64,000 nucleotides of DNA from the NCBI GenBank assembly GCA_050948825.1, contig JBMNEO010000010.1, positions 52,740 through 116,739 of the forward strand, in the 5' to 3' direction. The notes beneath the pieces were generated by a model that worked only from the letters and a program-made list of their open reading frames with translations, was not told the origin of the DNA and ran no database searches. This stretch comes from Dethiobacteria bacterium (lineage in GTDB: Bacteria; Bacillota; Dethiobacteria; DTU022; UBA8154). This document shows, piece after piece, positions 9,056 to 63,506 of the stretch (positions within the stretch are counted from its first letter, which is position 1; each line of letters opens with the position of its first letter). The translations under genes and the position numbers were made by a program.

Positions 9056-11155
9056 GTGCTCCAGACATTGCTTTGCCGGATATGGAAGAACTTAATAAAT
9101 AGCAGCAGAAAGCTCATAGTTGTTTTTATGCTCCTGCCGTCTTTGTTATTTATTTCTGCCTGCATGCCCAAGGTTCCTCCCCCACAGGGGGAGTCACCGA
9201 TTGAACCGGTGGTAAGCGGTCTGGAAAATTCAGACGAGCAGTTTCTCCGCGGCCGTTTTTCCGTAGTAAACCCTGAGATGACAGTTTATTCCCTGTCGAT
9301 ATCCGATACGGGCGGCAGTATCCTTTTCAGCCTGGATTCACGTTCTGTAAATATGATTGATGATCAGGGACAGCTAAAATGGGAATTTACCCCTGAAGGC
9401 CTTCCTTTATCCGCCGTGCTGACACCTGATGGGCGTTACCTGGCTGCAGGCACAGATCAGGGCAGGGTATATTTCATTAACGATAGCGGACGTGTTCTCT
9501 GGGAAAACTATTATACGGGGAAAGTTGAGCAGCTTGCCCTGGCTGATGACGGAGCTTATTTGGCGTTTTCGCTGGCAGGAGAAGACGGGCATACTCTTTA
9601 TCTCCTGGACCAATGGGGAACAACGCTTCAGGAGAAGAAAACAGGTCCTTTGCTCAAACTGAACATCCTGCCCGGGGGCGATATCTGTTATCTTGAAAAA
9701 GGGGAGGAGGTCAATACTGTTGTATACCTGAGAGGGGGGGAGGTTGTCTTTGAGGAAGAAGCTTTGCTAGCTTCCACATCCGGCTGCGGGAATTATGCCG
9801 TTATCTATAACGGCGATAAAATAAATCTATACAGACTCAATATCCATGCAAAACCCCGGTTGATCTCTACTTGTTCGGCAAGCGACAAGATCAGCTGGCT
9901 GGAGATTGCCGATAATGGAGAACGTATCTTTGCCTACAGCGCTTTTTCCGGATCCGGCAGTAACCTTTTTGTATTTCATAAAGAAGGTTACTTGCTCTGG
10001 GACAAGCGGATTCCCGGCGGATCCCTTTTGGATATCTCCTATTATGGAGAGAGGATTGTGGCTTCTTCCTGGCAGGAATACAGTGATGATTTTAGTAAAG
10101 TGCTCGTTTTTGACAGCAACGGCAATATTCTGCAGAAACTGGAGATGGCAACCAGGATAGAAAAACTGGCCCTGTCGGGTAACGGCAACATTCTCGCTCT
10201 TGCCGGCAATGACGGTAATATCTTTGTTATGGATATTCCCGTTCACAGGTTCCTGACTGCGGAGACAGATTTAAACGAAGAGAACGAAACGGAGAAAGAA
10301 ATTTACCATCCGGTAACATTTAACGTTCCTGCAGATGTAGCGTACCTGGTGCTTTATTTTTTTGATGAAGAAGCTGCGCACCTTATTCCTGTAAACCGCG
10401 GGATTAAAAAAAATCAGATGACCATGCAGATTGCAATAAACGAACTGATAAAGGGGCCGCGGCGCTTAAGCAATCTTTCCCGTACCATTCCCAAGGATAC
10501 CGCTATCAGTATTGCTCTTAATGAAGGTATTGTAACTATTGACCTTCCGGAAGAACTGAGCAAATTGGGTGATGCAAGCCAGATAACGGGTATTTTCAAT
10601 TCTCTTATCTCTACTATTTCACAGTTTCCCTACGTAACGGGGATACGTTTTTTGCTGTCGGGTGAAGAAGCCGCAACATTTGGTGCTACAGGCCTTTCTC
10701 TAGATAGGACTTTCCCTTCACGTTCTCCGGGGAAAAATACAAAACTGATTTATCTTCCGTACCGTTCCGGTGAACAATACTACCTGCTTCCCCGTGAGGT
10801 AATACAGCTGGGGCACAAACCATTCACCCCCGAGGAGATGGTTAATATGGTTCTGAAGGAAAGCAGGCTTTTATTTAATGAAGTTCCGGAACTGACTAAA
10901 GTTGAGCTGCAGGAAGATCGTATTGTTCTGGATTGGACATCTTCAATAATAAAAATGTTTCCATCCGGAGGCAGCCCGGAACAAAAAGCGCTGGCAGCTC
11001 TTTTTGTAGATGCGCTGTTGCTTACACTAGGGGAGAATTTACCGCCGGACCGCCTGGTTTTTCAAGTGGAGGGCAGAACCTGGCGGCTTCCGGCCGAATA
11101 TTCTATGTTGAATCTGGAAATCAGCCGTCCTTTTTATATTAACCCCGAGCAATAA
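9056..11155 (+). CDS. Predicted lipoprotein: beta-propeller (PQQ/WD40-like) plus GerMN-like domains
   Basis: Lipobox-like LFISAC; repeated G-x-x-x-W blades (GQLKWE, GRVLWE, GYLLWD); GerMN-like LYFFD..HLIPV.R, AINELIKGP, TISQFPYV..IRFL. Confidence 0.7.
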   Translation: MLQTLLCRIWKNLINSSRKLIVVFMLLPSLLFISACMPKVPPPQGESPIEPVVSGLENSDEQFLRGRFSVVNPEMTVYSLSISDTGGSILFSLDSRSVNMIDDQGQLKWEFTPEGLPLSAVLTPDGRYLAAGTDQGRVYFINDSGRVLWENYYTGKVEQLALADDGAYLAFSLAGEDGHTLYLLDQWGTTLQEKKTGPLLKLNILPGGDICYLEKGEEVNTVVYLRGGEVVFEEEALLASTSGCGNYAVIYNGDKINLYRLNIHAKPRLISTCSASDKISWLEIADNGERIFAYSAFSGSGSNLFVFHKEGYLLWDKRIPGGSLLDISYYGERIVASSWQEYSDDFSKVLVFDSNGNILQKLEMATRIEKLALSGNGNILALAGNDGNIFVMDIPVHRFLTAETDLNEENETEKEIYHPVTFNVPADVAYLVLYFFDEEAAHLIPVNRGIKKNQMTMQIAINELIKGPRRLSNLSRTIPKDTAISIALNEGIVTIDLPEELSKLGDASQITGIFNSLISTISQFPYVTGIRFLLSGEEAATFGATGLSLDRTFPSRSPGKNTKLIYLPYRSGEQYYLLPREVIQLGHKPFTPEEMVNMVLKESRLLFNEVPELTKVELQEDRIVLDWTSSIIKMFPSGGSPEQKALAALFVDALLLTLGENLPPDRLVFQVEGRTWRLPAEYSMLNLEISRPFYINPEQ

Positions 11156-22243: not shown

Positions 22244-22547
22244 AACTGCCGCCCCCCTTCGGCCTTCTATATTGTTAGACGTTTTAATTTTTAATTTCAC
22301 TGCATGCAAATGAAGTAGGGATAGAAGTAGAAGTAGGAATATTAGAAGAAATATAGAAACCTTATTATATCTGTCAGTATTTAAGGCCTGGGTATCAAAA
22401 ACAATCCAATTACCTGGTATGAAATATTGCATGATCCATTATCCTACAACAGGCGCTATTAATCCAGCCGGTACAGGGAGGAAGATCATAGTTGATAACA
22501 TGTTAATAGAGCCTTTTTGCCCGAAGCAACCGCTGTAACAACAGATA

Positions 22548-22577
22548 TTGACATATGCTCATTAACTGGGTTACAAT
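22548..22577 (+). promoter_or_regulatory. SigA-type promoter upstream of yqeB (about 200-nt leader)
   Basis: TTGACA-N18-TACAAT. Confidence 0.55.
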
Positions 22578-22791
22578 TTAATCAGAAAATGAGAGAGCAG
22601 GATGCGGGCATCTTCTGCCATGCCGAAGTGCAGAAATAATGGTGTTGTTAACGTGAAAAAAGCTTAAAAATATATACCATAGATCACAGATCACCAACTC
22701 TAATAGATGTTTTTAAAGCTGTTAGAGTTATCTCGGATGTCGGTAGTATTCACAATGCGGTGAAAGTAGTCATTGGAGGAGTTGATAAAAG

Positions 22792-23604
22792 GTGAGACAG
22801 TTACCATCAAAAGTATTGATCAAAGGTGCCGGGGATCTGGCCAGCGGGACCGCCCACCGCCTGTGGCAGGCCGGATTTGATGTTGTCATGCTGGAGCTGC
22901 CGCAACCGCTTGTCGTTAGGCGCAGCGTCTCTTTTGCTTCTGCCGTTTATGGGGGTTCCGTGTCCATTGAAGGGGTTGAAGCGAGGTGTTGCCGGGGGGT
23001 CGAAGAAGCCGACCGCATAGAGGACTTGCTGGAAAAACGAATTATACCCGTATTTATCGATCCGGAGGGTAAGTTGATACAAATCTATCAACCCGATGTT
23101 CTGGTTGACGCCATTCTGGCCAAAAGAAATACAGGCACTTCTATTGGCGATGCGCCCCTTGTTATAGGGCTGGGCCCCGGTTTTGCAGCAGGGAAGGATG
23201 TCCATGCCGTTATTGAAACCCAGCGAGGCCATGATCTGGGCAGAGTAATCTATGAAGGTTGTGCCGCCCCAAACACGGGCGTGCCCGGCGATATAGCAGG
23301 CTTTGCACTGGAAAGGGTGCTGCGGGCACCGGCTGCAGGGGTATTTACAACCCTGAAAAAAATTGGCGACCTTGTTGAAGAAGGCGAGACAGTTGCTGCT
23401 GTAAACGATGTACCCGTTAAGGCGGCAATAAGCGGTGTTCTACGCGGTTTACTTTATCCCGGCCTGGAGGTTGGACCGGGGGCAAAAATTGGAGATATCG
23501 ATCCACGCGGGAAAGAAATAGCTGTTCATACCATTTCTGATAAAGCGAGATCCATAGCGGGAGGGGTGCTGGAGGCAATTTTACATTTGTCATATAACCG
23601 GTGA
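22792..23604 (+). CDS. yqeB: Selenium-dependent molybdenum hydroxylase accessory protein YqeB
   Basis: KGAGDLASG, VDAILAKRN, IGLGPGF, ETQRGHDLG, KIGDIDPR, ISDKARSIAGGVLEA. Confidence 0.92.
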   Translation: MRQLPSKVLIKGAGDLASGTAHRLWQAGFDVVMLELPQPLVVRRSVSFASAVYGGSVSIEGVEARCCRGVEEADRIEDLLEKRIIPVFIDPEGKLIQIYQPDVLVDAILAKRNTGTSIGDAPLVIGLGPGFAAGKDVHAVIETQRGHDLGRVIYEGCAAPNTGVPGDIAGFALERVLRAPAAGVFTTLKKIGDLVEEGETVAAVNDVPVKAAISGVLRGLLYPGLEVGPGAKIGDIDPRGKEIAVHTISDKARSIAGGVLEAILHLSYNR

Positions 23605-23625
23605 TTATATAGCACTTTATTATTA

Positions 23626-23793
23626 TGGCTCCACTGTAAAAATTCCATTTTGATTAACTTGTTTCAAAAGTGGAGAGATAATATTCGTTTTCCTTATTTT
23701 ATTATGCTGCAAACAAGTAAAGACCTCAAAATTTTTAAAAGTGGGGATCTCTCAAATTCAATTCATTAATAATGATTTATGCAGTGGAATCAA
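23626..23793. mobile_element. MITE-like non-coding element, copy 1
   Basis: Imperfect TIRs TCCACTGTAAAAAT / ATTTATGCAGTGGA; aligns by eye in reverse orientation to 42671-42827. Confidence 0.6.
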
Positions 23794-23892
23794 TTGTGGA
23801 ATCAATTATATATAATGCTTTGTCTCCATTAGGTTTGGTAGTATTTAGCGGTGCTTTAGCTGTAGTATTTCAATTAAAAATTTTTCCCGGGG

Positions 23893-24729
23893 GTGTGTAA
23901 ATTGATGGAAAAAGATATTTTTGAACACCTTAGTAAGATGGCAGGAAACGCGGAACCTGCCGCCCTTGTTACGATTATAGAATCAACCGGATCTGCTCCG
24001 GGTAAAACGGGCTTTAAAATGCTGGTTGATCTTGAAGGTAATACATTGGGTACCGTTGGCGGCGGCCGGATTGAGGCGACAGTAATCCAGGAAGCAGTAG
24101 AGGCCATTAAAAAAAATGCCTCCCAAATCAGAAAGTACAGGCTGGATAATGAACAAGCCGGAGGGTTGGGAATGATCTGCGGCGGGGATGTAACGGTTTT
24201 TATCGACGTAATTATCCCTCCGGAATCACTTCTCATCATCGGAGCAGGGCATATTGCCCAGCCCCTCGCAGCCATGGCGAAAATTGTGGGTTTTCATGTG
24301 ACCGTGATGGATGACAGGGAGGAATTCTGCAACAGCGAAAGATTTCCGACGGCAGATCAGTGCCTGGTTGGAGAGATACCGGAGCTGCTGCAGAATTGGA
24401 AGATAACCAGGAATACTTACATTACCATTGTAACGCGTGGCCACGAACACGATCAGATAGCCCTGGAAAAAACTCTCCTTTCCGGAGCTTATTATTTGGG
24501 GATGATCGGTAGCGAAATTAAAGTTCAAACGATATATAATAACTTAATGGAAAAAGGTTTTTCCGAAAAAGACCTGGAGAAAGTGCATGCTCCTATCGGT
24601 CTGGATATCAAAGCCATTACCGCAGAAGAGATCGCCGTCAGCATCCTTGCACAGTTAATATTTGAAAAGAACAAGGCTAAAGCTTATAAAGGGGTAAAGT
24701 TTAAAAATAACAACACCTGTCCGGCTTGA
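23893..24729 (+). CDS. xdhC: XdhC/CoxI-family Moco chaperone
   Basis: GSAPGK, GTVGGG, GMICGG, GAGHIA, VTRGH, GMIGS, HAPIGLDI, EIAVSI. Confidence 0.9.
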   Translation: MCKLMEKDIFEHLSKMAGNAEPAALVTIIESTGSAPGKTGFKMLVDLEGNTLGTVGGGRIEATVIQEAVEAIKKNASQIRKYRLDNEQAGGLGMICGGDVTVFIDVIIPPESLLIIGAGHIAQPLAAMAKIVGFHVTVMDDREEFCNSERFPTADQCLVGEIPELLQNWKITRNTYITIVTRGHEHDQIALEKTLLSGAYYLGMIGSEIKVQTIYNNLMEKGFSEKDLEKVHAPIGLDIKAITAEEIAVSILAQLIFEKNKAKAYKGVKFKNNNTCPA

Positions 24730-24999
24730 CAGCTTTGAAATAATAGTATATTTTTAGATTTGAAAGTTTCTAAAGTTATAGTAGCTTTACTAATAAGCGC
24801 AAGCACCGAGTATTAATCATTAATGCCTACGCATTAAGCGCCAGGTATTCAGGCCCTTAATCCTGAACCCTTGTGTTAACTTATCAATACTTTTTTGCGT
24901 TCCCATAAACAACGATGTACGATTATATGCTATATCGCCGGGTTTTGTGTGAGCATGTGGAGGCATTTGTTAATTTATTTAAAGAGCCATGACCTATGC

Positions 25000-25056
25000 C
25001 ACCGTTATACTTATATACATATAACGTCTCGTTATATGTATATAAGTATAACGGTG
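25000..25056. promoter_or_regulatory. Perfect 27-bp inverted repeat; each arm a ModE-like operator
   Basis: CACCGTTATACTTATATACATATAACG-TCT-reverse complement; each arm contains CGTTATA-N10-TATAACG. Confidence 0.6.
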
Positions 25057-25178
25057 ATGAAAGGCGCATATAGATAATATACAGCGTGATTGAAAACTTG
25101 CAGCGGGTATATCTGTTTTCATTCCACACCGAACAGAACCAAATTATTTATATTAGCGATTGGAGAGTTGATGTCGCA

Positions 25179-25841
25179 GTGAAGAAAAACTTGTTTTTAG
25201 AAGGAAATATCCGTCTGGGAAAATCTGCACTGATTCGAGAAATCCTGCTTCCCTTTTTTCCCAAAGTGGGAGGAATTTTTGTGCAGAGGATATTTATCGG
25301 GGAGCGGTATGTCGCGTTTAAATTGCATCCGATAAAAGAAGTGGCGGATTATCGGCTGAATCTATACGTGAACAGTTTAAGTGAAGTGAACAACCTTTTT
25401 CTTTACAGCGACAGCCGGGGTAAATGGCGGCCAAACAAAGAAGTTTTTGAAAACAGCGGGGTTGCATACCTGAAGGAAAGTGTCGAAAAAAACAAGCATT
25501 TAATACTGCTGGATGAATTGGGAGGGGTGGAGCTTGGCTGCCCTGCTTTTATGGAGGCGGTTATGATGGTGTTAAACAGTAAAATCCCCGTGCTTGGTGT
25601 TTTAAAATCCCGGCGAAATGCAGAAAAGCTGGGTGCAGCCCTGGCGGGTAAACAGGCGGGTAATTGCGCGGACAGTGCGTCCGCTGTTTTTGCGGAAAAA
25701 AAAGAAAAGGGGGGTTACGAGGCCTCTTTCCTGCAGCTTATCAAATCCCATCCGGAGCTTGACCTTTTACGTGTTACCGAAAACAATGTTCCGGAAGTCC
25801 AAAGCAAAGTAAAAAAATTTGTGGAGAGGGCCGTTTCGTGA
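25179..25841 (+). CDS. P-loop NTPase (NTPase_1/THEP1-like)
   Basis: LFLEGNIRLGKS Walker A, LILLDELGGVE Walker B; GTG 25179 after GGAGAG. Confidence 0.75.
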   Translation: MKKNLFLEGNIRLGKSALIREILLPFFPKVGGIFVQRIFIGERYVAFKLHPIKEVADYRLNLYVNSLSEVNNLFLYSDSRGKWRPNKEVFENSGVAYLKESVEKNKHLILLDELGGVELGCPAFMEAVMMVLNSKIPVLGVLKSRRNAEKLGAALAGKQAGNCADSASAVFAEKKEKGGYEASFLQLIKSHPELDLLRVTENNVPEVQSKVKKFVERAVS

Positions 25842-26608
25842 GCGTGATGAAAGAATGGACGGACGAACAAATTTTAAATTATTACCTGGGAATCGAGCAC
25901 AGCGATTACCCGCGGGTGTTCTGGGATGCCATGCGGCCGCATCTTGCCGGTTGCACATCCTTGATTGATATCGGGAGCGGCCCGGGAGCATTTACACTGG
26001 TTGCTGCCCGGGATGGTTTTCATGTTCAGGCGGTAGATATAAACAAAAAAAACCTCGATGCCCTGCAGAAGAAAATAAAAGAGCTGGAGTTGGGAAAGGT
26101 AAAGCTTATTTACGGCGATTGGCTGGAGACGGAGGCGGAAAAATGCGATGCGGCTGTCTGTGCATATAGTTTTGGCGGCAGAATCGGCACCGCCCAGGGG
26201 TTTAACAAAATATTTGAGATTGCCGGAAAGGTTGCCTTCTTTATTTCTCCTTATGCAAGCGTTCAAACTGATTTCTTAACCGGAGAGCTCTACAATAAAA
26301 TGGGGATAGAGCCTCCTTCTTTCAGTGGTGACTACCGCGACCTCCTGCAGTTGTTACAAAATCAGGGGAAGGAGGTTGAGTGTAAAATATTCGAATATGA
26401 TTTTGGCATGCCCCTGGCAAGTAAGGATGAGCTCGACAACTGCGTCCTTTACTTGGGAGAAAAACTGGGGCTGCCCCCTACAGATCTTTTTAAGGAGCAT
26501 CTTCAAAAAATTATCACCATGCGAAACGGCCTTTACTGGGTGCCCAACCCCAGGAAAAGCGCCATGATAATCTGGAAAGGGAGAAGTGAAACAAATGACA
26601 ATGATTAA
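25838..26608 (+). CDS. Class I SAM-dependent methyltransferase
   Basis: LIDIGSGPG motif I, AVD motif II; overlaps NTPase stop. Confidence 0.85.
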   Translation: MSVMKEWTDEQILNYYLGIEHSDYPRVFWDAMRPHLAGCTSLIDIGSGPGAFTLVAARDGFHVQAVDINKKNLDALQKKIKELELGKVKLIYGDWLETEAEKCDAAVCAYSFGGRIGTAQGFNKIFEIAGKVAFFISPYASVQTDFLTGELYNKMGIEPPSFSGDYRDLLQLLQNQGKEVECKIFEYDFGMPLASKDELDNCVLYLGEKLGLPPTDLFKEHLQKIITMRNGLYWVPNPRKSAMIIWKGRSETNDND

Positions 26609-27176
26609 CAGATTTTTTATCAGGTTTACTACCTTTGACTTCGTGATTATTGCACTTTTATCAGCTTGCGGGATTGCTACAAAACCTTTTGTCAGGTTTT
26701 TGGCCCAGATATTTACGGGAACCCTGATCCCCATCGGAACGGTAGCCGGTATCTTTTATATGCTCTGGATTGTCCTGGCCTGCGCTATTGTAAAAAAAAG
26801 GGGAACGGCTATTTTAGTCGGCATTGTGCAATCAGTTTTGGTAGTGGTATTTGACATGCTCGGCAACCGCGGTTTGGCTAACCTTCTGGTTTACGTCGTC
26901 CCCGGAGTCACCCTGGAGCTCGCGATGCTGGCCTTCCCGCATTATGTTTCTACGCTTTTCAGCTCGTTTACCGCAGGTGCGGTGTGCAACGCTACCGGTT
27001 CGTTTATCGTTAGCGTGGTTTTTATGCGCCTGGCTTTTATTCCCATGCTGGTTTCATTAATTGTATCCGGGATTTTTGGAGGAATTGGGGGAATTGTGGG
27101 CTATAAGTTATACGCTGTGGTTAACAGTTTAAAGGGCACGGCAAGAGAATACAGCGAAGGAGAAACGCAAGATTAG
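26586..27176 (+). CDS. ECF transporter S (substrate-binding) component, specificity unknown
   Basis: About 190 aa, 6 TM, D..IIALLSA first helix; followed by two ATPases and a T component. Confidence 0.8.
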   Translation: MKQMTMINRFFIRFTTFDFVIIALLSACGIATKPFVRFLAQIFTGTLIPIGTVAGIFYMLWIVLACAIVKKRGTAILVGIVQSVLVVVFDMLGNRGLANLLVYVVPGVTLELAMLAFPHYVSTLFSSFTAGAVCNATGSFIVSVVFMRLAFIPMLVSLIVSGIFGGIGGIVGYKLYAVVNSLKGTAREYSEGETQD

Positions 27177-27223
27177 GTCAAGGCCAAGAAAATAAAAATA
27201 CTGGTGGTGTATAAGCGAAAAGC

Positions 27224-27964
27224 ATGGAAAGCATGGAGCGCCTGAAGGTAGAACATTTATGGTACACATATGAAGGGGGGAATCAGCCGGTTTTAAAAGA
27301 TATTACCTTCAAACTTCTTCAAGGGGAAGCCCTGGGGATTATCGGGCTGAACGGCAGCGGCAAGACCACCATGAGTTACTGCCTTTGCGGCATTATTCCC
27401 CATTACCTGAAGGGAACGCTGGAAGGGCGGGTACTGGTTAACGGAAAAGATACCAGGGAGATCCCTTTATATCAGCTGACCACAGAAATAGGAATTGTCC
27501 TGCAGGATCCGGGTATCCAGCTGCTGATGCCCACGGTAGAGGATGATATTGCCTTTGCCCTGGAGAACCACAACCTCCCCCGCGAGGAGATCAGGGAGCG
27601 TATATACAGGACTATGGAAACGGTGGGCATTACCGGGCTTAAAGACGAAAATCCCAACAACTTGTCGGGAGGCGAGAAACAGCTGGTCGCGCTGGCCACC
27701 GTACTGGCTTTAAACCCGTCCATTATTATTTTTGATGAATCGCTTTCAATGCTTGACGAGCTGGCGGCGCAAAGGATTATAGCGGTCATGCAGAGGTTAA
27801 AAGATGAGGGAACCACACAGGTTATTATCGACCATACTATGAAAGGCTTTGAAGTGTACGACAAAATTTTTATTCTGGAAGAGGGCCGGATTATCTACCG
27901 GGGTTCAAAAGATTTTGCCCTGCGGAATAAAGAGTTTTTAAGGGAACACAGGTTCTTTTTCTAG
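27224..27964 (+). CDS. ECF transporter ATPase (EcfA)
   Basis: GLNGSGKT, LQDP Q-loop, LSGGEKQ, IFDE. Confidence 0.88.
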   Translation: MESMERLKVEHLWYTYEGGNQPVLKDITFKLLQGEALGIIGLNGSGKTTMSYCLCGIIPHYLKGTLEGRVLVNGKDTREIPLYQLTTEIGIVLQDPGIQLLMPTVEDDIAFALENHNLPREEIRERIYRTMETVGITGLKDENPNNLSGGEKQLVALATVLALNPSIIIFDESLSMLDELAAQRIIAVMQRLKDEGTTQVIIDHTMKGFEVYDKIFILEEGRIIYRGSKDFALRNKEFLREHRFFF

Positions 27965-28005
27965 CGCCAAATTATTGCTGAAGTAATCACGTAGCCGGAG
28001 GTGCT

Positions 28006-28686
28006 GTGGTGGCTTTCATTTCACTGCAGGAAGTGAGCTATACTTACAACGGGCGGAAAGAGGCCGCTGTAAAAAATATTTCTCTTAATATAGAAGAAGG
28101 AGAAAAGATTTCTCTTACCGGTTTAAACGGCAGCGGTAAATCTACGTTGGCCAGGCTGATGCTTGGCCTTCTCAAGCCCCAAGCGGGAAAGATCGTTCTT
28201 GACGGCCTCCCGCTGGGGAAATATTCCCTTGTAAAGATTGGGGAAAAAGTGGGTTATGTTGTTCAAAACCCCAGCCAGATGCTCTTTAATACGAGCGTCT
28301 TTAACGAAATCGCCTTTGGCTTGAAATGGAAGGGCAAGGGAAAGGATGAGGTTTACCAGCTCTGTAAAAAATACCTGGAGTTCTTTGAACTGTGGCACCT
28401 GCGGGACAAGCTCCCATTTAATTTGAGCGAAGGACAGAAACAGCTGGTGGTGATCTGCGCTGTATTGGCCTTGCAGCCCCGTTATCTGATTCTGGATGAG
28501 CCGACGAAGAGCATCGACACTTTTCGGAAAAAAAGATTAAAGGATATTTTGCAGGAAATCTGGAGCCTCGGTACCGGAATTATGGTTATCAGCCACGATA
28601 TGGATTTTCTAGCAGACTTTGACGGCAGAAGGATACACATGGTAAAAGGTGAGGTTGTGGAAGATGCGCGTAGATATCAGAACTAA
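28006..28686 (+). CDS. ECF transporter ATPase (EcfA')
   Basis: GLNGSGKS, QNP, LSEGQKQ, LILDEPT, ISHD. Confidence 0.88.
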   Translation: MVAFISLQEVSYTYNGRKEAAVKNISLNIEEGEKISLTGLNGSGKSTLARLMLGLLKPQAGKIVLDGLPLGKYSLVKIGEKVGYVVQNPSQMLFNTSVFNEIAFGLKWKGKGKDEVYQLCKKYLEFFELWHLRDKLPFNLSEGQKQLVVICAVLALQPRYLILDEPTKSIDTFRKKRLKDILQEIWSLGTGIMVISHDMDFLADFDGRRIHMVKGEVVEDARRYQN

Positions 28687-29386
28687 ACTCCTTATAGTGG
28701 CAATTTTTTCCGTTTTGGCCCTGGCATACCAGGATCCCCGGATCCTGGGTATGATCCTGCTTTTGAACCTGTTGACAATTATACTCTTCAGGGTGCCGCT
28801 GCATATTTTTCACGGCTTTAAAGGCTTTATCTTTATGTATGCCGTATTAATGGTTATCCAGAGCTTTTTCGTGAGAGACGGGGAACCGCTGCTCCAGATG
28901 GGTAACATCTACCTTTTAACAACTGATGGAGTTCTTTACGGGATATCCATAATGTTGCGTTTTTTTATACTGGCCGGTTCGGGATTAATATTATTGAATT
29001 GCAACACTGCGGAGTTGATCCTGGCACTGGTCAAATTGCGCATTCCTTACGAGATTGTCTTTATGATACAGTTAGGAATCAGGTTTATTCCGGTATTCAT
29101 GGGCGAACTGCAAAATATCTTTCACGGTATCCAGCTGCGAGGCGTAGACCTGCGCCGGGTATATAAAAGAAAAGTAATCAAAGTATATGTCGGCATTTTC
29201 TCCCCGGTTATCTATAGCGTCTGGCAGAAGGCCGAAAAGCTTTCTATCCTGCTGGAACTTCGCGGCTTTCGCAATTCCTCCACCAGGACATATTACAGAG
29301 ATATATCCCTGGGAAGAATTGATTATGTAATAATGACCCTTTCCTTAATTATCACCGCAGCACTCGTCTACGCAGTGCGACACTAG
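28649..29386 (+). CDS. ecfT: ECF transporter T component
   Basis: DIRTKL, RFIP, two xRG motifs (QLRG, ELRGF); stop codon lies inside a REP-like repeat. Confidence 0.88.
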   Translation: MRLWKMRVDIRTKLLIVAIFSVLALAYQDPRILGMILLLNLLTIILFRVPLHIFHGFKGFIFMYAVLMVIQSFFVRDGEPLLQMGNIYLLTTDGVLYGISIMLRFFILAGSGLILLNCNTAELILALVKLRIPYEIVFMIQLGIRFIPVFMGELQNIFHGIQLRGVDLRRVYKRKVIKVYVGIFSPVIYSVWQKAEKLSILLELRGFRNSSTRTYYRDISLGRIDYVIMTLSLIITAALVYAVRH

Positions 29387-29462
29387 GGACGGTTCTCCCT
29401 GTCGCAAATGCGACAGGGAGAACCGTCCCTAGTGTCGCAGAGAGAACCGGTGCTAGTGTCGC
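29376..29462. repeat. Inverted pair of REP-like palindromes plus partial third
   Basis: TGCGACACTAGGGACGGTTCTCCCTGTCGCA then its reverse complement. Confidence 0.85.
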
Positions 29463-29767
29463 GAGTGTTGCGTACTTTTTTTCTCGCACATGGTATGCTG
29501 CTGTGTTATAATGTTAATGGAAAAGGACAACTCTTACACTTCCGGTTAATTAGTTGCGAGCCCTTAAGCCAGTTTTTTTCCAATTATCTTATCTTGGGCC
29601 GCTTAAGCTGCAGGTCAAGCAGGCCATAATTTTTAGCCATGGGAACGTTTTATGGAGAGGAAGGAACCGTGCTCATGGCATGTTTTGATCACGGGATCCG
29701 GCATGCCCTGACACTGTATAAGTTCCGGTATTGCCTGGCACTGTATTTTAAAATGGGGGGGTATCTT

Positions 29768-55706: not shown

Positions 55707-55726
55707 AAAGCAAAGAAAATATTGTG

Positions 55727-55884
55727 CATCCGGGTGTCAAAAGACTTAATAGGGAAGCCGGTGAAAGTCCGGCGTGGTCCCGCCACTGTAAGCGGCGAGT
55801 TCTCCCGCAAAAGCCACTGGTCCCAAGGGGCTGGGAAGGTTGGGGGAAAACGTTGACCCGCAAGCCAGGAGACCTGCCCAGATG
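55727..55884 (+). ncRNA. Cobalamin riboswitch
   Basis: AATAGGGAA.CCGGTG.AA.TCCGG, CCCGCCACTGT, GCCACTG, GGGAAGG, B12 box AGCCAGGAGACCTGCC. Confidence 0.95.
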
Positions 55885-55962
55885 CGAGTTCGGCCCCCTT
55901 CGGGTAAAAGGGCAAGGCGAGTGGTAGAACCGCGCGAATTTCCCGTGGTTTTTTTGTTAGGC

Positions 55963-56107: not shown

Positions 56108-57071
56108 GTGAAGAAGTATACAACAGCGATGCTGGTTCTGTTGATTTTGGTTCTATTGATGTTGGCCATGTTCTGCGGCGGTTGTGGTGGGCCGGCGAAT
56201 GTTGCTGGTGAAAATGCCGGAAGCGGAAGCGGAGCTGACGCCCCGGGCGAAGGTTATCGATCAGGCCGGCAGGGAGCTGGTCCTTTATAGGGTTCCGCAG
56301 AGGATAGTCTCCCTTTCGCCGGCCAATACGGAGTTCGCCTGTGCCCTGGGGCTGGGAGAGCGGTTGGTGGGGGTGACCGACTACTGCGACTACCCTCCGG
56401 GGGTTGAGGATAAACCAAAGGTGGGGGGGTTTGCCGATCCCAACCTGGAACAGATTATTGCCATGGAGCCGGAGCTCGTCCTGGCGGGAGATATGCACTC
56501 TGATGTGACGGAAAAGCTTGAGGATATGGGGATAGCGGTACTCGTTTTAACCCCGGTAACCCTGGATGATGTCTACGCATCGCTGGAGCTGCTGGCGGAG
56601 GTAACGGACTCCGATGAGGAATGCGCAGAGCTGACTGCAAAGATGCAGGAGCGCATCGGAGCGGTGCAGGATGCGCTTGCCTCCCTGGATGAAAGGGAGC
56701 GGGTACGCGTTTATTTTGAGATCTATGCCGACCCGCTGATGAGTGTGGGGAAGCGGTCTGTGATCCACGAAATTATTACCCTTGCCGGGGGAGCGAACAT
56801 CTTTGCCGATGTTGATGATACTTACCCAACCGTCAGCGCGGAAGCCGTGGTCAATAGAAACCCGCAGATTATCCTTTTCCCCAACTATCACGGAACGGAG
56901 GAATTATTGTCCGGGCTGCTGCAGGAGCGTCCGGGCTGGAGCAAGATATCCGCAATTGCCAGCGGACGGGTTCACGGTGTCGATAATGACGCTTTTTCCC
57001 GGCCCGGCCCGCGAATTGTCGATGCGGTGGAAGAGGCGGCAAGGATCTTTTACCCCGCACTCTTCGAATAA
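56108..57071 (+). pseudogene. btuF: Cobalamin-binding lipoprotein BtuF, frameshifted between signal peptide and mature domain
   Basis: Signal/lipobox MKKY...CGGC in one frame; VIDQAGR..PQRIVSLSPANTE, RPGPR in another. Confidence 0.75.
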
Positions 57072-57203
57072 ATAGGAATAAAGGAATAGCAAGAAAAAAA
57101 TCTGCTGGTTTCCAACACCAAACATTCTAGATTCTGAATGTTGGACTCTAGATACAGCCGATTCTGAATACATAACATAGTCTTTTGTCGCAAGGAGGCA
57201 CAC

Positions 57204-57800
57204 ATGGAGGATACAAGAGGCAAGCTTATACTGGTTACAGGAGGGGCGCGCAGCGGTAAGAGCACTTTTGCGGAAAACTGCGCCCGGGAGGCCTCCAAAA
57301 GGGTAGTATATATCGCTACCGCGGCCGGGGATGATGAAGAGATGCGCAGACGCATTGCAGCTCACCGGCAGCGGCGCCCAAAGCATTTTATTACTATAGA
57401 AGAGCGCTATTATCCCCACCTTGTCCTGGAAAAGGAAGGGCGGGGGGACACCTTTATTCTCCTGGACTGCCTGACGCTGCTGCTGAGCAACCACCTCATA
57501 AAGGAGGCCTACGGGGAAGGCGGGGCAGAGCGGAACCAAGGGGAAATACTGGCCGATGCTGCGGAGCAGGAGAGGGTGATGGAACGGATACTGGAGTATT
57601 TCGGCAGCCTCTCCCTTTTAATGCGCAGCAGCCCGGCCGATGTCCTTGTGGTGACAAACGAGGTCGGTATGGGCCTGGTTCCGGAGTACCCCCTGAGCAG
57701 GGTCTTTCGCGATCTTTCGGGGAGGGCCAACCAGATCATGGCTTCCCGCGCGGATGAGGTCTGGTTCACGGTCTGCGGAATTCCCCAAAGAATTAAGTAA
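57204..57800 (+). CDS. cobU: Adenosylcobinamide kinase/guanylyltransferase
   Basis: TGGARSGKS, YIAT, LLDCLT, VTNEVG.G, FRD..G.ANQ. Confidence 0.95.
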   Translation: MEDTRGKLILVTGGARSGKSTFAENCAREASKRVVYIATAAGDDEEMRRRIAAHRQRRPKHFITIEERYYPHLVLEKEGRGDTFILLDCLTLLLSNHLIKEAYGEGGAERNQGEILADAAEQERVMERILEYFGSLSLLMRSSPADVLVVTNEVGMGLVPEYPLSRVFRDLSGRANQIMASRADEVWFTVCGIPQRIK

Positions 57801-57935
57801 ATGCGACATCGGGGACGGTTCTCCCTGTCGCATTATGCAGAGAGTGCGACACTAGGGACGGTTCTCCCTGTCGCATGACATTGGAGACGTGCGACACTAG
57901 GGACGGTTCTCACTGTCGCATGACATTGGAGACGT
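57801..57935. repeat. Three REP-like palindromes, last two in a 45-bp tandem duplication
   Basis: Cores at about 57812, 57855, 57900. Confidence 0.85.
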
Positions 57936-58008
57936 TTTCACTTTTGCACTTTGCAGAGAGAATACCCAGAAAGAACACCCTTAAAATAGTGAATAAAGAC
58001 GAGGTTAA

Positions 58009-59001
58009 ATGATGGGAATGTGGTTTGATTTAGGAGCGCTTATTCTGGCGTTTGGTCTCGACCTCCTTCTGGGGGACCCCCGCTGCCTCCCCCACCCGGT
58101 CAGGGCAATCGGCGGGGCTGTTCTCATCCTCGAGGGGCTTTCCCGCAGGTTGTTCCATAGCGCGGCGGGCTTGAGGTTTGCCGGGGGGGTGATTGTCTTT
58201 CTGGTTGCCGGGGGCTGCGCTGCGGCGGCCTTTTACGCTCTGAAGTATGCATTTTACCTGCATTTCCTGCCGGGGATGCTGCTTTCGATCTACCTTTACT
58301 ATGCGATGATCGCCACCGGGGATATGCTCCGGCATGTACGGCCGGTAGAGGCTGCGTTTGCGGGGGATAACCTTCCCCTGGCAAGGGAGCGGGCAGGCCT
58401 GCTCGTCAGCCGGGATACCGCCGGCCTTGACGAGGAAGGGGTTGTCAGGGCTGCCCTGGAAAGCCTGTTTGAAAACGCTGCCGACGGCGTGGTTGCCCCG
58501 CTCTTTTATGCAGCCCTGGGTGGGCCGGCCCTGGCGGTTTTATACAAAGCAGTAAACACTATGGATTCTATGCTGGGTTACAGGACGCCGCGCTACTTTT
58601 ACCTGGGCTGGGCGTCGGCGCGTGCAGATGATCTGTTGAGCTATATACCCGCCCGCCTTACCGCATTGCTTTTTATCCTGGCTGGGGCGCTTGGCCGCCT
58701 TAACTGGAAACAGGGCTGGAGAACGCTCCTGCAGGACAGAAAGAAACACGATAGCCCGAACAGTGCGTGGCCGGAAGCTGCCGCTGCCGGGGTTCTGGGA
58801 ATCAGGCTCGGCGGGCGCGATCGTTATCACGGGAAGGAGATTAGCCGCCCGCACCTGAACAGTACCGGCAGACCCCCCTGCCGGCGAGATTTTGCCCCGG
58901 CGCTTGCCCTATTCAAGGGTGTATCCCTTTTGGCATTACTAGCGGCGCTGGCGCTGATGATGATGGTTTTTTGGTGGGGCGCAATACCGTGGTTCGCTTA
59001 A
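58009..59001 (+). CDS. cbiB: Adenosylcobinamide-phosphate synthase
   Basis: GDP..PHPV, VSRDT, ESLFEN..DG, NTMDSMLGY, SPNSAWPEA. Confidence 0.94.
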   Translation: MMGMWFDLGALILAFGLDLLLGDPRCLPHPVRAIGGAVLILEGLSRRLFHSAAGLRFAGGVIVFLVAGGCAAAAFYALKYAFYLHFLPGMLLSIYLYYAMIATGDMLRHVRPVEAAFAGDNLPLARERAGLLVSRDTAGLDEEGVVRAALESLFENAADGVVAPLFYAALGGPALAVLYKAVNTMDSMLGYRTPRYFYLGWASARADDLLSYIPARLTALLFILAGALGRLNWKQGWRTLLQDRKKHDSPNSAWPEAAAAGVLGIRLGGRDRYHGKEISRPHLNSTGRPPCRRDFAPALALFKGVSLLALLAALALMMMVFWWGAIPWFA

Positions 59002-59279
59002 AAAATGGCACAGGCAGGTTTTACTCCCGGTTTCTGTACCGGTTTTGGTATAGGAATTAGCGCATGAGACATTCCAATGAAAAAGCTTTATTCTCAATTG
59101 TTTTATACAATGTACGCATCTTTTGCCTGTTGATAACGATATTTTAACATTATATACTGTTTTCAGTAAGGCTTTCCTGAGAAGTAACGACAGAAAATGC
59201 AGGGACCTTGATTTGTTATAATTTTAGTTCTCATAGTATTATTGCTATTGCTATCATATTGCCGCAAGGGGGTTGGGCT

Positions 59280-60032
59280 GTGAAGAAATTTTGTCTGGCA
59301 CTTTCCTTTTTAACGATCTTCCCCTGCAGTCCGCGTTCCCCAATCGAACGCGGGGAACTGGCTGCTGCAGCTGCTTACTTTCCCTTGGTCGGCGCGATGC
59401 TGGGGCTGTTCATGGGGGGCGCTGTTTATCTGCTGCGCCTGCTAATACCCTCCGGCCCGCTGGCGGCGCTGGTCCTTGCCGCGTCATTTCTCTTAACGCG
59501 TGGGCTGCACCTTGACGGCCTGGCCGATACCGCCGACGGACTTATAGGGGCGATGGACAGGGAAAAAGCGCTGAAGATCATGCGGGACAGCGTTGTCGGC
59601 TCGATGGGGGTTTGTGCGCTTCTCTTCGTCTACCTCTTTAAATATGCTGCCCTGCTTGCCGTGGACACCCCTTTTTTCCCTCTGGCCATATTCTCTCTTC
59701 CGTTTTGCGGCCGCTGGGCGATGGTTCTGGCCGGCGCGGCATTTGCCCCTGCCAGGCCGGATGGCCTGGGAAACCAGTTTATTGGAGAGCTGGGGTGGAA
59801 GCATTTTCTGTATGCTTCATTTTTTGGGGCCGCGGTCATCGCGGCAACAGTCTGTTTTTGCAGTCATTTTATTTTCCCCATGCTCTGCGGAATTGCAGTA
59901 GCTTTTACTCTCTCGCTGCTCCTTTCCGTCTATGCCGCAGGGAGGCTTGGCGGTTTGACCGGGGATATCCTCGGTGCTGTGAACGAAATAGCCGAAGCGG
60001 GCTTTTTGCTGGGGGTGATCATCTGGAACTGA
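59280..60032 (+). CDS. cobS: Adenosylcobinamide-GDP ribazoletransferase (cobalamin synthase)
   Basis: GLHLDGLADTADG, IMRDS..G, GGLTGDILGA; GTG 59280. Confidence 0.94.
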   Translation: MKKFCLALSFLTIFPCSPRSPIERGELAAAAAYFPLVGAMLGLFMGGAVYLLRLLIPSGPLAALVLAASFLLTRGLHLDGLADTADGLIGAMDREKALKIMRDSVVGSMGVCALLFVYLFKYAALLAVDTPFFPLAIFSLPFCGRWAMVLAGAAFAPARPDGLGNQFIGELGWKHFLYASFFGAAVIAATVCFCSHFIFPMLCGIAVAFTLSLLLSVYAAGRLGGLTGDILGAVNEIAEAGFLLGVIIWN

Positions 60033-60295
60033 AAGGCGAAAGGATTACAGGAAACGGGAAAGGCAACAGAAAAACTAACAAAAGAACTGAAGGGGGAGGG
60101 AAGCCTTGGGATTTGATAAGGTTGAAAATAGGCTTGCCATGAAAGGAAATTCCGTAGGCAGGGATCCCTTGATCGGTAAAGCAGTGCCTAATGACCGCAT
60201 GGGCGGGGCTCTGAAAAGTCGGGAGACCGCCGGTGAACATGCCTCTGGCAGGAAGTCCATGGTGGAGCTTATAAATGACAGAGATTCCGTAGAAG

Positions 60296-61550
60296 ATGGG
60301 GGGGTACATAGGCGAAAGCGCAAAAATCATCGGGAAGGCCGCGGGCGAGGAGACCGGCGGCCACGGGGGCAATGTCTATGCCGCCGCGGCGGCGCACGGC
60401 CTCAGGCCGGAGGATTTTTACGATTTCAGCAGCAATATCAACCCGCTCGGGCCGCCGCCGGGGCTGCTTCCCGAGTTAAAAAGACATCTTGAGCGGGAAA
60501 TCTGTCGCTATCCCGCACCCCAGGCCGCCCCGTTCCGCGGTGCCCTGGCCCGGGAGCTGGGCATCCCCGAGGAGCACCTGCTGATCGGCAATGGTGCCAA
60601 CGAGCTCATTCACCTGTTTTTTCTCTGGAAAAGGCCGAAAAAGGTGCTTATCCCCGCGCCGACTTTTTCCGAATACGAGAGGGCGGCGCGGTTGGCCGGG
60701 GCAGAGGTGGAGTATTTCCGCCTCCTGCCTGAAGAGGTGCTGTCCGAAGAAAAACTTGCCGCACAAATACAAACCGCACAAGCACAAATGGATGGCAGCG
60801 ATTTAATTGTCTTTTGCAACCCCAACAATCCGACGGGGATGTTTTACCCGCGGGATCTGCTGGAAGACATTGTCCTGGCAGCAGGGGAAAAAGGTGCGGC
60901 GGTCTTCATTGACGAGAGCTTTTTCCCCTTTACGGGGCGCCCTGCCATGGAAAGCTTTTCCGGATCTATTTTCCGATCTGCCTTCTACCCGGGTCCTGTT
61001 GACTCCTGCCCGGAAACCGGTGATCTTCGCCCGACCTCCGGCACCGAAACTGAAAATACGGGGGTCAGTTATGGCAACCTCTGGGTGGCCACCTCGCTGA
61101 CCAAGCTCTGGGCACTGCCCGGCCTTCGCCTTGGCTACCTGCTTGGCCCCCCGGAAGGCATCAGGAGCTTAACCGAAAACGGCGATCCCTGGAGGGTTAA
61201 CGCTCTTGCCCAGCGGGCGGGGAGTTACTGCCTTTTCCAAAAACAGTATCTGGAGGATTCACTGGAGCTGGTCAAAAGGGAGCGGGAATTCCTGCTGCGG
61301 GAACTGGAAAAAATTGAAGGACTGAAGGTTTACCCGGGGGAGGCCAATTACCTCCTCCTCAGGGGATGTGTCCTGCGGCTTCTCCAGCGCTGACCTCTGC
61401 CGGAAACTCGCCGCCCGCGGGATCCTGATCCGCGATGCCTCGAACTTCCCCGGCCTCGACGGCAGCTACTTCCGCATTGCGGTCCGCCCGCGGTCGGAAA
61501 ACCTTCGCCTGCTTTCCGCATTGCAGGATTACTTATGCGGGGTTATGTAA
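60296..61550 (+). pseudogene. cobD: Threonine-phosphate decarboxylase CobD, frameshifted near C-terminus (possibly also at a G7 tract at the 5' end)
   Basis: HGGN, DFSSNINPLG, CNPNNPTG, SLTK..LPGLRLGY; conserved tail GILIRDASNFPGL..YFRIAVR is in another frame (61368-61550). Confidence 0.8.
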
Positions 61551-61736
61551 TTAAAATAAAAAAAGTGTTTTTTAGAATCGGTATAATCACACAAACGGTG
61601 CAGGCTCAGCTTGCGGCCCTTTTTATAGAGGAGCGCCTCCTGCCAGGGCTGGCCGGCGCGGAAAAATGGCCTGTGCAACCAGGAAGATAGCGAAGCTGCA
61701 CCGTTGCAAAAATTTTGGAGGTAACTATGATATTAA

Positions 61737-62828: not shown

Positions 62829-62906
62829 AAGGTGTAAGTAAAGGTTGCTCATAACAGGGTTCATAACAGAGGAGAACGATGAATAGAACTGTGAGGAAGA
62901 CAGCAA

Positions 62907-63506
62907 ATGAAAATCTATCTTGTCCGGCACGGGTTGACGGAATCGAACAAACAAAAACACTATACCGGGTGGACCGATGTGGAGCTTGCCCCCGAAGGGG
63001 TCGCACAGGTGGAGGCGCTGGCCGCCGGATTCTCCGGCATGAAAATCGCCGGGCTTTTCAGCAGCGACCTGCGCCGCGCCATAAAGACGGCGGAGATCAT
63101 CGGTTCCGGCCATGGATTGAAGCCGGAGCCGAGCCCGCAGCTCAGGGAGATAAATTTTGGGCTTTGGGAAGGCCTTCGCTATGAAGAAATAATAGCCTCT
63201 TACGAGAATGAAATGCGCCGCTGGTACGATGATCCCTTTTTGTGCGCTCCACCGGGAGGTGAAGACCTGCGCCAGGTTTTCGCCAGAGCTCACTCGTTCC
63301 TGGACGGCCTCTGGAACCGGGAAGACGGGGAAGGCACCTTTGTCGTTGTCAGTCACGGCGGGACGATCCGCAGCGTCCTGCACCACTACCTGGGGCTGGA
63401 AAAAAACCGTTTCTTTGAGCTGACCGTAGATAACGCCGCGGTGAGCCTGCTGGAGAAAGACGCTCAGGGGACCGTCCGGGTATCCTATATGAACAAACGC
63501 CTGTAA
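62907..63506 (+). CDS. cobC: Alpha-ribazole phosphatase (histidine phosphatase)
   Basis: LVRHG, SSDLRRA, EINFG.WEG, VSHGG; cob operon context. Confidence 0.85.
   Translation: MKIYLVRHGLTESNKQKHYTGWTDVELAPEGVAQVEALAAGFSGMKIAGLFSSDLRRAIKTAEIIGSGHGLKPEPSPQLREINFGLWEGLRYEEIIASYENEMRRWYDDPFLCAPPGGEDLRQVFARAHSFLDGLWNREDGEGTFVVVSHGGTIRSVLHHYLGLEKNRFFELTVDNAAVSLLEKDAQGTVRVSYMNKRL

Follow-up and report, generated by a model that had tools for sequence, protein, structure and literature searches.

What is imported by a dedicated transporter whose genes stand behind two genes for the maturation of molybdenum enzymes and behind an operator of the ModE type? This question is raised by a 64,000-nucleotide stretch of DNA from a Dethiobacteria bacterium (hereafter, the window), in which yqeB and xdhC are followed by six tightly linked genes encoding: (i) a THEP1-like P-loop NTPase; (ii) a methyltransferase dependent on S-adenosylmethionine (SAM); (iii) the S component of an energy-coupling factor (ECF) transporter; (iv) and (v) two ATPases of the EcfA type (A and A'); and (vi) the transmembrane component EcfT (T). 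In our judgement, the chances are slightly better than even that this six-gene unit is a group I ECF importer belonging to the molybdenum regulon and serving, most likely, a molybdopterin-type compound. The most likely candidate substrates would be the molybdenum or the tungsten cofactor (Moco or Tuco), metal-free molybdopterin (MPT), or a dephosphorylated or precursor form. The link of the module to molybdenum and tungsten (Mo/W) is well supported, because three independent lines of evidence bear on it, i.e., the gene neighbourhood, the shared ModE-type operator and the riboswitch control of a sister clade. The substrate, the direction of regulation and the parts played by the NTPase and the methyltransferase are what we infer.

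A dedicated ECF transporter behind a ModE-type operator

The contiguous genes for the S component (26586-27176), EcfA (27224-27964), EcfA' (28006-28686) and EcfT (28649-29386), all of them on the plus strand, give the composition of a group I (dedicated) ECF transporter. By family scans, the S component matches PF09819 (45.8 bits; cut-off 25.2) and EcfT matches CbiQ PF02361 (106.1 bits). Both ATPases match ABC_tran (91 bits for EcfA, 108 bits for EcfA') and stay under the NCBIfam cut-offs for ECF ATPases, with 215.5 bits against ECF_ATPase_1 (cut-off 315) for EcfA, and 176 and 173 bits against ECF_ATPase_1 and ECF_ATPase_2, respectively, for EcfA'. On the same strand, the NTPase gene (25086-25841) and the methyltransferase gene (25838-26608) precede them, and three junctions of the unit overlap: NTPase/methyltransferase by 4 nt, methyltransferase/S by 23 nt and A'/T by 38 nt. 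A previous reading of this DNA from its sequence alone (hereafter, the sequence-only reading) had described co-oriented yqeB and xdhC and a tight six-gene unit with three overlapping junctions, a layout borne out by the list of open reading frames (ORFs) and by family scans. The known classes of ECF substrates, reportedly listed by Rodionov and colleagues in 2009, were used for comparison.

The ModE-like palindromes that the same reading had pointed to are two 24-bp operator boxes without assigned strand, both of the form CGTTATA-N10-TATAACG. Box 1 (25003-25026; no mismatch) has a matrix score of 35.2 and box 2 (25030-25053) of 35.4, and both lie inside a 57-nt perfect palindrome (25000-25056). 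The operator box of the family is CGTTATAC-N8-GTATAACG, and the consensus operator of Escherichia coli ModE, as it appears in the available part of the source, is ATCGNTATATA-N6-TATATANCGAT (PMC545781); the two have an equal 24-bp span and common CGnTATA...TATAnCG ends. With a matrix built from 22 sites, scores above 20 occur in the whole 2.0-Mb genome only at the two boxes of the window, the next best site reaching 18.5; in this matrix search, no box was found before the tupABC or MOT1-like genes of the window's own genome.

The order NTPase-methyltransferase-S-A-A'-T recurs in 22 other loci, from metagenome-assembled genomes (MAGs) of Clostridia, found by a species-genome scan and tblastn (loci are labelled L, and genomes G, plus three digits, G000 being the window's own genome). 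In the window and in 19 of the 22 loci, a box lies at most 330 nt upstream of the NTPase gene, with none there in L004, L013 and L022; this search used a regular expression that tolerated up to 3 mismatches over the 14 fixed positions, and we estimate the chance expectation at about 0.01 boxes per locus. Tandem boxes are present also in L001 and L002. When the pattern was scanned through 21 genomes with at most 1 mismatch and the sites were then annotated with NCBIfam, boxes were found ahead of modA (L092), of modA-modB-modC (L001:2213), of a ModA-like gene downstream of a ModE-N::TupA-like fusion (L102) and of a molyb_syn gene (L099), as well as between yqeB and xdhC (L094) and between the gene for the Mo subunit of xanthine dehydrogenase (XDH) and xdhC (L103 and L104, the latter being the head of the L013 operon). 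Within the loci of the unit, the matrix search placed boxes also ahead of a ModE-N gene (L017) and between a ModE-N gene and yqeC-yqeB-xdhC (L018 and L020). Because a reversed-pattern control also matches, 0-4 times per genome, isolated extra boxes were counted only before Mo-related genes. As the genomes carrying the unit have this box also before modABC, xdhC, yqeC-yqeB and a ModE-N gene, the box ahead of the six-gene unit belongs to a molybdenum regulon.

The small HTH_1 regulators found by the unit (107-133 aa) match only TIGR00637, the DNA-binding domain of ModE, at 62-78 bits (cut-off 98.5), and no full-length ModE with molybdate-binding Mop domains was found among the linked regulators; stand-alone Mop/TOBE proteins exist in these genomes. 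In the window's genome, the nearest copy of the regulator is on contig C7, beside a yqeC-mocA fusion, and is 51-58% identical to the unit-linked ones elsewhere. The unit thus resembles the ModE regulon, ModABC and TupABC in the operator type, shared with modABC in relatives, and in the Mo/W response to be expected from it. It differs from them in that (i) the candidate regulator is a ModE DNA-binding domain devoid of Mop domains; (ii) the architecture is that of an ECF transporter, with no classical binding protein; and (iii) the probable substrate would be a pterin cofactor instead of an oxyanion.

No Rfam family reached its gathering score near the operon, and none was credible at E<=10 in 22300-25300. 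A riboswitch upstream of the window's operon was considered and rejected, the matches of the permissive scan being spurious alignments of the palindrome to microRNA hairpin models.

Sister operons under riboswitch control

In a class sample of 149 genomes, two tiers of S-component hits were distinguished: (i) tier 1, with at least 245 bits (17 genomes, including the window's); and (ii) tier 2, with 147-197 bits (19 genomes), whose S components are about 40% identical to the window's clade and form its sister clade. The gene order of the sister operons is small Oxidored_molyb-like protein(s), S, phosphodiesterase (PF01663), Oxidored_molyb-like protein, A, A', T and MobB-like protein, with the addition of MoeA in L036 and of an APH-like kinase in L035; tupAB is near in L032, as are the genes for a ModA-like protein and a PBP_like regulator in L033. 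The ModE-type box is absent from the tier-2 loci, and the NTPase-methyltransferase pair is found in only one of ten (L040). Fusions occur among 15 long family members that were scanned, joining S to Oxidored_molyb in four and S to phosphodiesterase in three. An S::Oxidored_molyb fusion is encoded in the window's genome too (L042:16567-17652), on the same contig, 35-55 kb upstream.

The RF01055 aptamer (Moco/Tuco riboswitch) heads the operon in 9 of the 15 sister-type loci (L032, L035, L036, L037, L038, L039, L079, L081 and L082); it was not found ahead of the operon in L033, L034, L040, L041 (where the contig is cut), L077 and L078. In L032, a second RF01055 aptamer lies before tupA. The displayed aptamer alignments (L039 and L037) have no P3 stem, and the P3-less form is tied to the tungsten cofactor in the available portion of the report on this riboswitch (Regulski et al., 2008, PMC2408646). 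The same portion records a riboswitch-controlled operon of Syntrophomonas wolfei that includes genes of unknown function, and it names no ECF or cofactor transporter. The sister ECF operons resemble the Moco/Tuco-riboswitch operons of that report in their position behind RF01055 aptamers; the window's operon differs from them in having no riboswitch. The association of homologues with Moco riboswitches that the sequence-only reading had proposed to look for is thus found in the sister clade.

Loss of moaA and moaC and the nature of the substrate

moaC is present in 125 of the 149 class genomes. In family f6, it is found in 16 of 23 genomes, the remaining seven (G137, G138, G139, G151, G152, G158 and G159) representing four genera and being 90-99% complete; in these seven, moaA was not found above the cut-off either (best 70.8 bits vs. 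284). The sister system is present in all seven, vs. 4 of the 16 moaC-positive f6 genomes. The seven have 16 AOR-family genes in all (1-3 each), and four of them have MoeA. In family f16, an unrelated family of the same phylum, moaC is present in none of four genomes (G343, G178, G552 and G529; 97-99% complete), of which three have AOR genes and G529 has none. The three AOR-bearing f16 genomes carry a cluster composed of Oxidored_molyb-like protein, S, (phosphodiesterase), Oxidored_molyb-like protein, A, A', T and MobB-like protein, next to which the NTPase-methyltransferase pair is transcribed in the opposite, divergent direction. Among these moaC-less genomes, the search for moaA covered the seven of f6, and that in f16 was for moaC. 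Since AOR-family tungstopterin enzymes are kept without moaC (and, in f6, also without moaA), the moaC-less f6 and f16 genomes, except G529, are apparent pterin-cofactor auxotrophs.

MoaE (PF02391) was not found in the seven f6 genomes, but its absence was rejected as a sign of auxotrophy, as it was equally not found in G000 and in three of four moaC-positive controls. The MoaE-like ORF of G154 has no homologue in G000; in the latter, which has moaA and moaC, the MPT synthase may be either too divergent for the search or replaced.

A pterin-type substrate is suggested by the partners of the sister system, among which are the fold of a Moco-binding domain, a nucleotide pyrophosphatase, MobB, MoeA and a kinase, and, above all, by the presence of the sister system in the seven f6 genomes devoid of moaA and moaC and in three moaC-less f16 genomes.

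The main rival to a pterin is the metal itself: the ECF transporter might import molybdate or tungstate, or else thiomolybdate or thiotungstate poorly handled by ModA and TupA, in which case the NTPase and the methyltransferase would treat a ligand or by-products. This we hold to be unlikely. In its favour are the operator common to the unit and modABC, and the riboswitch control that sister operons share with tupABC (L032, with its two riboswitches); besides, the metagenome and metatranscriptome runs in which this DNA occurs come, according to their records, from anaerobic digesters and bioreactors, habitats which we assume to be sulfidic. Nevertheless, the unit-bearing genomes already have Tup, Mod or MOT1 transporters, and organic micronutrients are the known substrates of S components with this fold. 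Metal import also leaves unexplained why the sister system is present in exactly those AOR-bearing genomes that lack moaA/moaC, and why it comes with phosphodiesterase and Oxidored_molyb-like fusions.

Conservation and gene neighbourhood

The S-component family is small. A search of 5.8 billion proteins gave 55 homologues at E<=1e-3, 47-91% identical and all from uncultured Bacillota, and the S profile found 258 proteins at E<=1e-3, and 38 at E<=1e-30, among 1.84 billion representatives. Regarding the 22 loci, the NTPase, S, A and A' genes were found by tblastn wherever the contig allows; the T component is present in 20 of them (L005 and L010 reach the contig edge before T) and the methyltransferase in 21 (L011 is without it).

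The linkage of homologues to Mo/W genes, which the sequence-only reading had proposed as a check, was confirmed. Either yqeB or xdhC, or both, lie directly upstream in 8 of the 22 loci (L001, L002, L011, L013, L018, L019, L020 and L022), and yqeC, mocA, xdh, tupABC, MOT1 and Mop genes are found nearby. In L013, the genes for the FAD, FeS and Mo subunits of XDH are upstream of the unit, and yqeC, a gene for a MobA-like transferase (mocA) and one for a 112-aa HTH_1 protein are downstream; in L018 and L020, the order is small HTH_1, yqeC, yqeB, xdhC and unit; in L017, a small HTH_1 gene is immediately upstream; and in L011, yqeB is preceded by genes for an HTH_1::PBP fusion, a TupA-like binding protein, a permease, an ATPase, MOT1 and a TOBE protein. 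L013, L017, L018, L019 and L020 contain small ModE-N genes. The Pfam scan of neighbourhoods comprised 142 ORFs, with L003, L009, L001 and L002 left out, and showed unrelated neighbours in nine other loci.

Instead of Mo-enzyme genes, L016 and L021 have genes of the NifU, Nitro_FeMo-Co and NUBPL types. The upstream cluster of these two loci contains NifU_N, Nitro_FeMo-Co (NifX-like), NUBPL/ParA, CbiA+Fer4, DUF134 and DUF5320, a set recurrent in anaerobes. In L005, L008 and, probably, L009, the unit is preceded at a distance of a few kb by ZIP and FUR genes.

yqeB is above the cut-off in 20 of the 22 genomes with the unit. In the class sample, it is found in 15 of the 17 tier-1 genomes, 4 of the 19 tier-2 genomes and 77 of the 149 genomes overall, counts which come from kindred, not independent, genomes; yqeB is missing from the tier-1 genomes G097 and G043, which are 82% and 96% complete, respectively. 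The association with yqeB gives rise to a second, improbable, explanation, namely that the window's clade imports a factor for Se-dependent molybdenum hydroxylases, e.g., a selenium compound, and that the methyltransferase acts on selenium. Apart from the linkage to yqeB and yqeC, it can appeal to weak matches of the methyltransferase to TehB and MduS (E about 1e-4) and to the selD gene of the genome (contig C11:5392-6321 of G000), which has one in-frame TGA and, for this reason, encodes a selenoprotein SelD, fitting selenium use alongside yqeB/yqeC. However, the TehB and MduS matches are far under every cut-off, the regulator is of the ModE type, and the sister clade is tied to AOR and tungsten and not to yqeB.

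Extracytoplasmic partners of the sister systems

The small Oxidored_molyb-like proteins start with a lipoprotein signal or a membrane anchor, and the phosphodiesterases are also membrane-anchored; both look like extracytoplasmic binding or processing proteins. Six of the seven Oxidored_molyb-like proteins examined have no cysteine outside the N-terminal signal/lipobox region, which makes it improbable that they are Mo enzymes.

A second PF09819 ECF system is encoded in the window's genome (contig C10:17000-52800 of G000; L042 and L029). Besides the S::Oxidored_molyb fusion, it comprises an ATPase in which A and A' are fused, a T component and an APH-like kinase. Many wall-associated Oxidored_molyb-domain proteins are encoded at C10:17000-37000, and a purple acid phosphatase upstream as well; after this ECF system come modD, a second ModE-N gene, genes for a molybdopterin oxidoreductase and moeA, an AOR-like gene, molyb_syn and Mop. 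At L029:7641, in the same region, there is a box that is ModE-like but of another type.

The abundance of secreted or wall-bound Oxidored_molyb-domain proteins, both beside the sister systems and in this region of C10, might be taken to mean that the transport runs in reverse, with an ECF-type exporter supplying cofactor to such extracytoplasmic proteins. We find this very improbable: six of the seven small proteins examined are, for want of cysteines, unlikely Mo enzymes, genomes without moaA/moaC have nothing to export, and the window's operon has no such partner gene.

Identity of the S component

The S component falls into a separate clade of PF09819 (the YkoE family), which is the outcome of the classification that the sequence-only reading had proposed. 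In a tree of 33 S proteins (without L037, and with L077, L078 and the S::Oxidored_molyb fusion on long branches), the tier-1 clade is apart from the sister clade, with an ultrafast bootstrap of 77 and an SH-aLRT of 100. The S profile gave no PDB hits at E<=10, the solved YkoE (5edl) included. The other PF09819 protein of the genome, i.e., the S::Oxidored_molyb fusion, matches YkoE 5edl_A with its N-terminal part (E 3.2e-13) and, weakly, a sulfite dehydrogenase with its C-terminal part (E 0.0079).

The unit shares with YkoEDC, the group I ECF transporter for thiamine or hydroxymethylpyrimidine (HMP), the PF09819 S family, a single operon with A, A' and T genes of its own and the logic of vitamin-type uptake. 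It differs from it in that (i) there is neither a thiamine pyrophosphate (TPP) riboswitch near the operon nor a thiamine-gene context, the neighbours being Mo-related; (ii) YkoF is missing; (iii) A and A' are separate genes; (iv) the S clade is too distant from the solved YkoE for a profile match; and (v) a ModE-type operator and the NTPase and methyltransferase genes lie ahead. An ordinary YkoE-type thiamine/HMP transporter that merely adjoins Mo genes is, for all the PF09819 membership of the S component and the YkoE match of the fusion, hardly credible, given the ModE-type operator where a TPP riboswitch would be expected (none was detected in the window or the upstream region), the failure of the S profile to find YkoE and a Mo/W gene linkage that is consistent across lineages.

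The NTPase and methyltransferase pair

The NTPase matches NTPase_1 (PF03266) at 52.6 bits; alignment of homologues indicates that its likelier start is the GTG at 25179, with a GGAGAG Shine-Dalgarno motif ahead. Its Walker A (GxxxxGKS) and Walker B (DE) motifs are invariant in 20 homologues. The AlphaFold2 (AF2) model has a pLDDT of 87.7, and its best fold match is THEP1 (1ye8; E 6.9e-7), with resemblance also to human NTPCR. Although the fold and the P-loop motifs are those of THEP1/NTPCR, the NTPase of the window carries inserts, among them a low-confidence loop (residues 159-178), and proteins of its type are paired with the methyltransferase in 21 of the 22 loci.

The methyltransferase is of the class I, SAM-dependent, small-molecule type with a lid domain (Methyltransf_25/31/11). 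Its D-x-G-x-G-P-G motif is invariant or nearly so, and the AF2 pLDDT is 91.3. It folds like lidded small-molecule enzymes such as HNMT, OxaG and the dithiol S-methyltransferases TmtA/GtmA (E about 1e-11 to 1e-12), matches that have 11-16% identity, are equalled in score by hundreds of others and, in consequence, give a lead only. No specific subfamily reached its cut-off in NCBIfam, and the protein-atlas search was generic too. A complex prediction for the NTPase with the methyltransferase scored 0.00, which is no answer and carries no weight on either side of the question of binding.

The pair keeps company with this transporter family. In L040 it stands at the head of the sister-type operon, and it flanks the operon in L079, L081 and L082; in L077, where XDH genes are adjacent, it precedes the S gene and is itself preceded by a box and a ModE-N gene; in L078, it comes after the S gene; and in L076, it is beside xdhC. 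In G138, an NTPase_1::methyltransferase fusion of 408 aa (L090:5953-7179) is encoded directly downstream of a ZIP metal transporter gene, and in G139 a like NTPase hit lies in a 416-aa frame. Separately, at L075:9029-10965 (G042), the gene for a methyltransferase homologue is followed by a Moco riboswitch (10190-10307) and then by an ABC ATPase gene, with no S component seen within the stretch examined.

Proposed working of the module and points against it

The import of Moco or of a tungsten pterin, already suggested from the letters of the window, gains support from the operators, the Mo/W linkage and, in the sister clade, the riboswitches and the loss of moaA/moaC. If this import is what the unit does, the module might work as follows: a regulator consisting of the ModE DNA-binding domain would bind both boxes upstream of the unit and keep the operon off while Mo/W or the cofactor is sufficient; on derepression, the S component would bind the pterin and EcfAA'T would drive its import; the co-translated THEP1-like NTPase and SAM methyltransferase would then act on the imported molecule in the cytoplasm, the NTPase perhaps (this is a guess) in re-phosphorylation or handling of the pterin; and the product would feed the maturation, by XdhC, YqeB, YqeC and MocA, of the five enzymes of the xanthine-dehydrogenase family of this genome. 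Control within the molybdenum regulon fits the scavenging of a ready-made, metal-loaded cofactor under molybdenum scarcity.

In the salvage of phosphorylated cofactors, dephosphorylation or cleavage outside the cell is followed by uptake and then by re-activation inside. The sister systems are similar in that they pair a secreted phosphodiesterase or phosphatase with an importer, and in having cytoplasmic P-loop proteins (MobB-like, NTPase_1) or an APH-like kinase. The difference is that no such pathway for molybdopterin was found described in full-text literature searches. Likewise, no bacterial transporter for Moco or molybdopterin, ECF or other, was found in the full-text literature, in agreement with the earlier remark that no ECF transporter for molybdopterin had been characterized; collections of the RegPrecise type and riboswitch supplements may list such operons as an unknown transporter. 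The literature matches on Moco uptake were mostly work on nematodes and other eukaryotes, with an E. coli metabolic model and a study of a secretion system besides.

Several points weigh against the import of a molybdopterin-type compound. To start with, a metal transporter could just as well be under the control of ModE or of a Moco riboswitch. The evidence from auxotrophy and riboswitches stems from the sister clade, which is about 40% identical and split from the window's clade with a bootstrap of 77, and all absence calls are limited by MAG incompleteness. The window's operon is without the secreted Oxidored_molyb and phosphodiesterase genes. The possibility that the window's genome lacks moaA and moaC, for which a check had been proposed, was rejected, as both are above the cut-off: the genome has moaA (344.9 bits), moaC (201.3 bits), moeA, mobA and the yqeC-mocA fusion, in addition to selD, tupABC and five XDH-family loci. 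As moaA and moaC are kept, uptake is not obligatory here and import would supplement synthesis; moreover, moaC is present in 16 of the 17 tier-1 genomes, and salvage is not needed to explain the Moco supply in the window's own clade. Nor is the unit indispensable for Se-dependent hydroxylases, because 62 of 132 genomes carry yqeB without the tier-1 unit. Finally, the fold matches of the NTPase and the methyltransferase are generic, and we know of no Moco chemistry that requires a methyltransferase.

Flanking genes and expression

Upstream of the unit, yqeB (22792-23604; plus strand) encodes a maturation protein of Se-dependent molybdenum hydroxylases (TIGR03309, 362.9 bits; cut-off 220), with no family matched in the Pfam scan. 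It is followed by xdhC (23893-24729; plus strand), which encodes a Moco insertion chaperone of the XdhC family (PF13478 XdhC_C, 149.3 bits; PF02625 XdhC_CoxI, 70.3 bits). Its best NCBIfam match is NF045664 XdhC_rel_AOR, with 298 bits (cut-off 350), and both subfamily models, TIGR02964 and NF045664, are under cut-off. A 357-nt gap separates xdhC from the six-gene unit.

The module is surrounded by housekeeping genes, with tadA, tRNAs and a sigma factor upstream, and purL, signal recognition particle RNA, dnaX and recR downstream. A purine link via the adjoining purL was rejected, and purL is not counted in the module, because it trails the unit solely in the two nearest relatives (L001 and L002). 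Between the T component and purL, there is an ORF of 73 aa (29408-29629) with no family, conserved (64%) only in L002. Further away in the window, a cobalamin riboswitch (55715-55895; 124 bits) lies ahead of a binding-protein gene, and a corrinoid salvage/remodelling cluster (56184-63506) contains cobU, cbiB/cobD, cobS, an aminotransferase gene, cobT and a phosphatase gene.

As regards expression, yqeB, xdhC and the six-gene unit are covered by metatranscriptome contigs from three studies, one of which (25528-26592) bridges NTPase-methyltransferase into S and another (27277-29342) A-A'-T. This is weak evidence that the genes of the operon are transcribed, because DNA may contaminate metatranscriptome libraries and transcript ends cannot be read from contigs. 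Contig coverage is interrupted around the palindrome (ends at 24956 and 25004, resumption at 25105), perhaps because of the way in which the inverted repeat was assembled. The scans for promoters (18 vs. 13.1 in shuffles; sd 4.0) and terminators (17 vs. 8.1 in shuffles; sd 2.7) were not clearly above shuffles and were not used.

Implications for molybdenum and tungsten biology

Cells are usually taken to depend on their own synthesis of Moco. On the broader proposal that both S clades would be the first bacterial uptake system for Mo/W-pterins, enabling Moco/Tuco auxotrophy in some anaerobes that keep AOR enzymes without moaA/moaC, and that the NTPase-methyltransferase pair of the window would re-activate the pterin for Se-dependent hydroxylases, we see the scales as evenly balanced. 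If it were true, (i) Moco and Tuco would join the shared micronutrients of anaerobic communities; (ii) the existence of genomes that keep tungsto- and molybdo-enzymes without moaA/moaC would be explained; (iii) a handle for studies of cofactor delivery would be available; and (iv) the THEP1-type NTPases would have their first physiological context.

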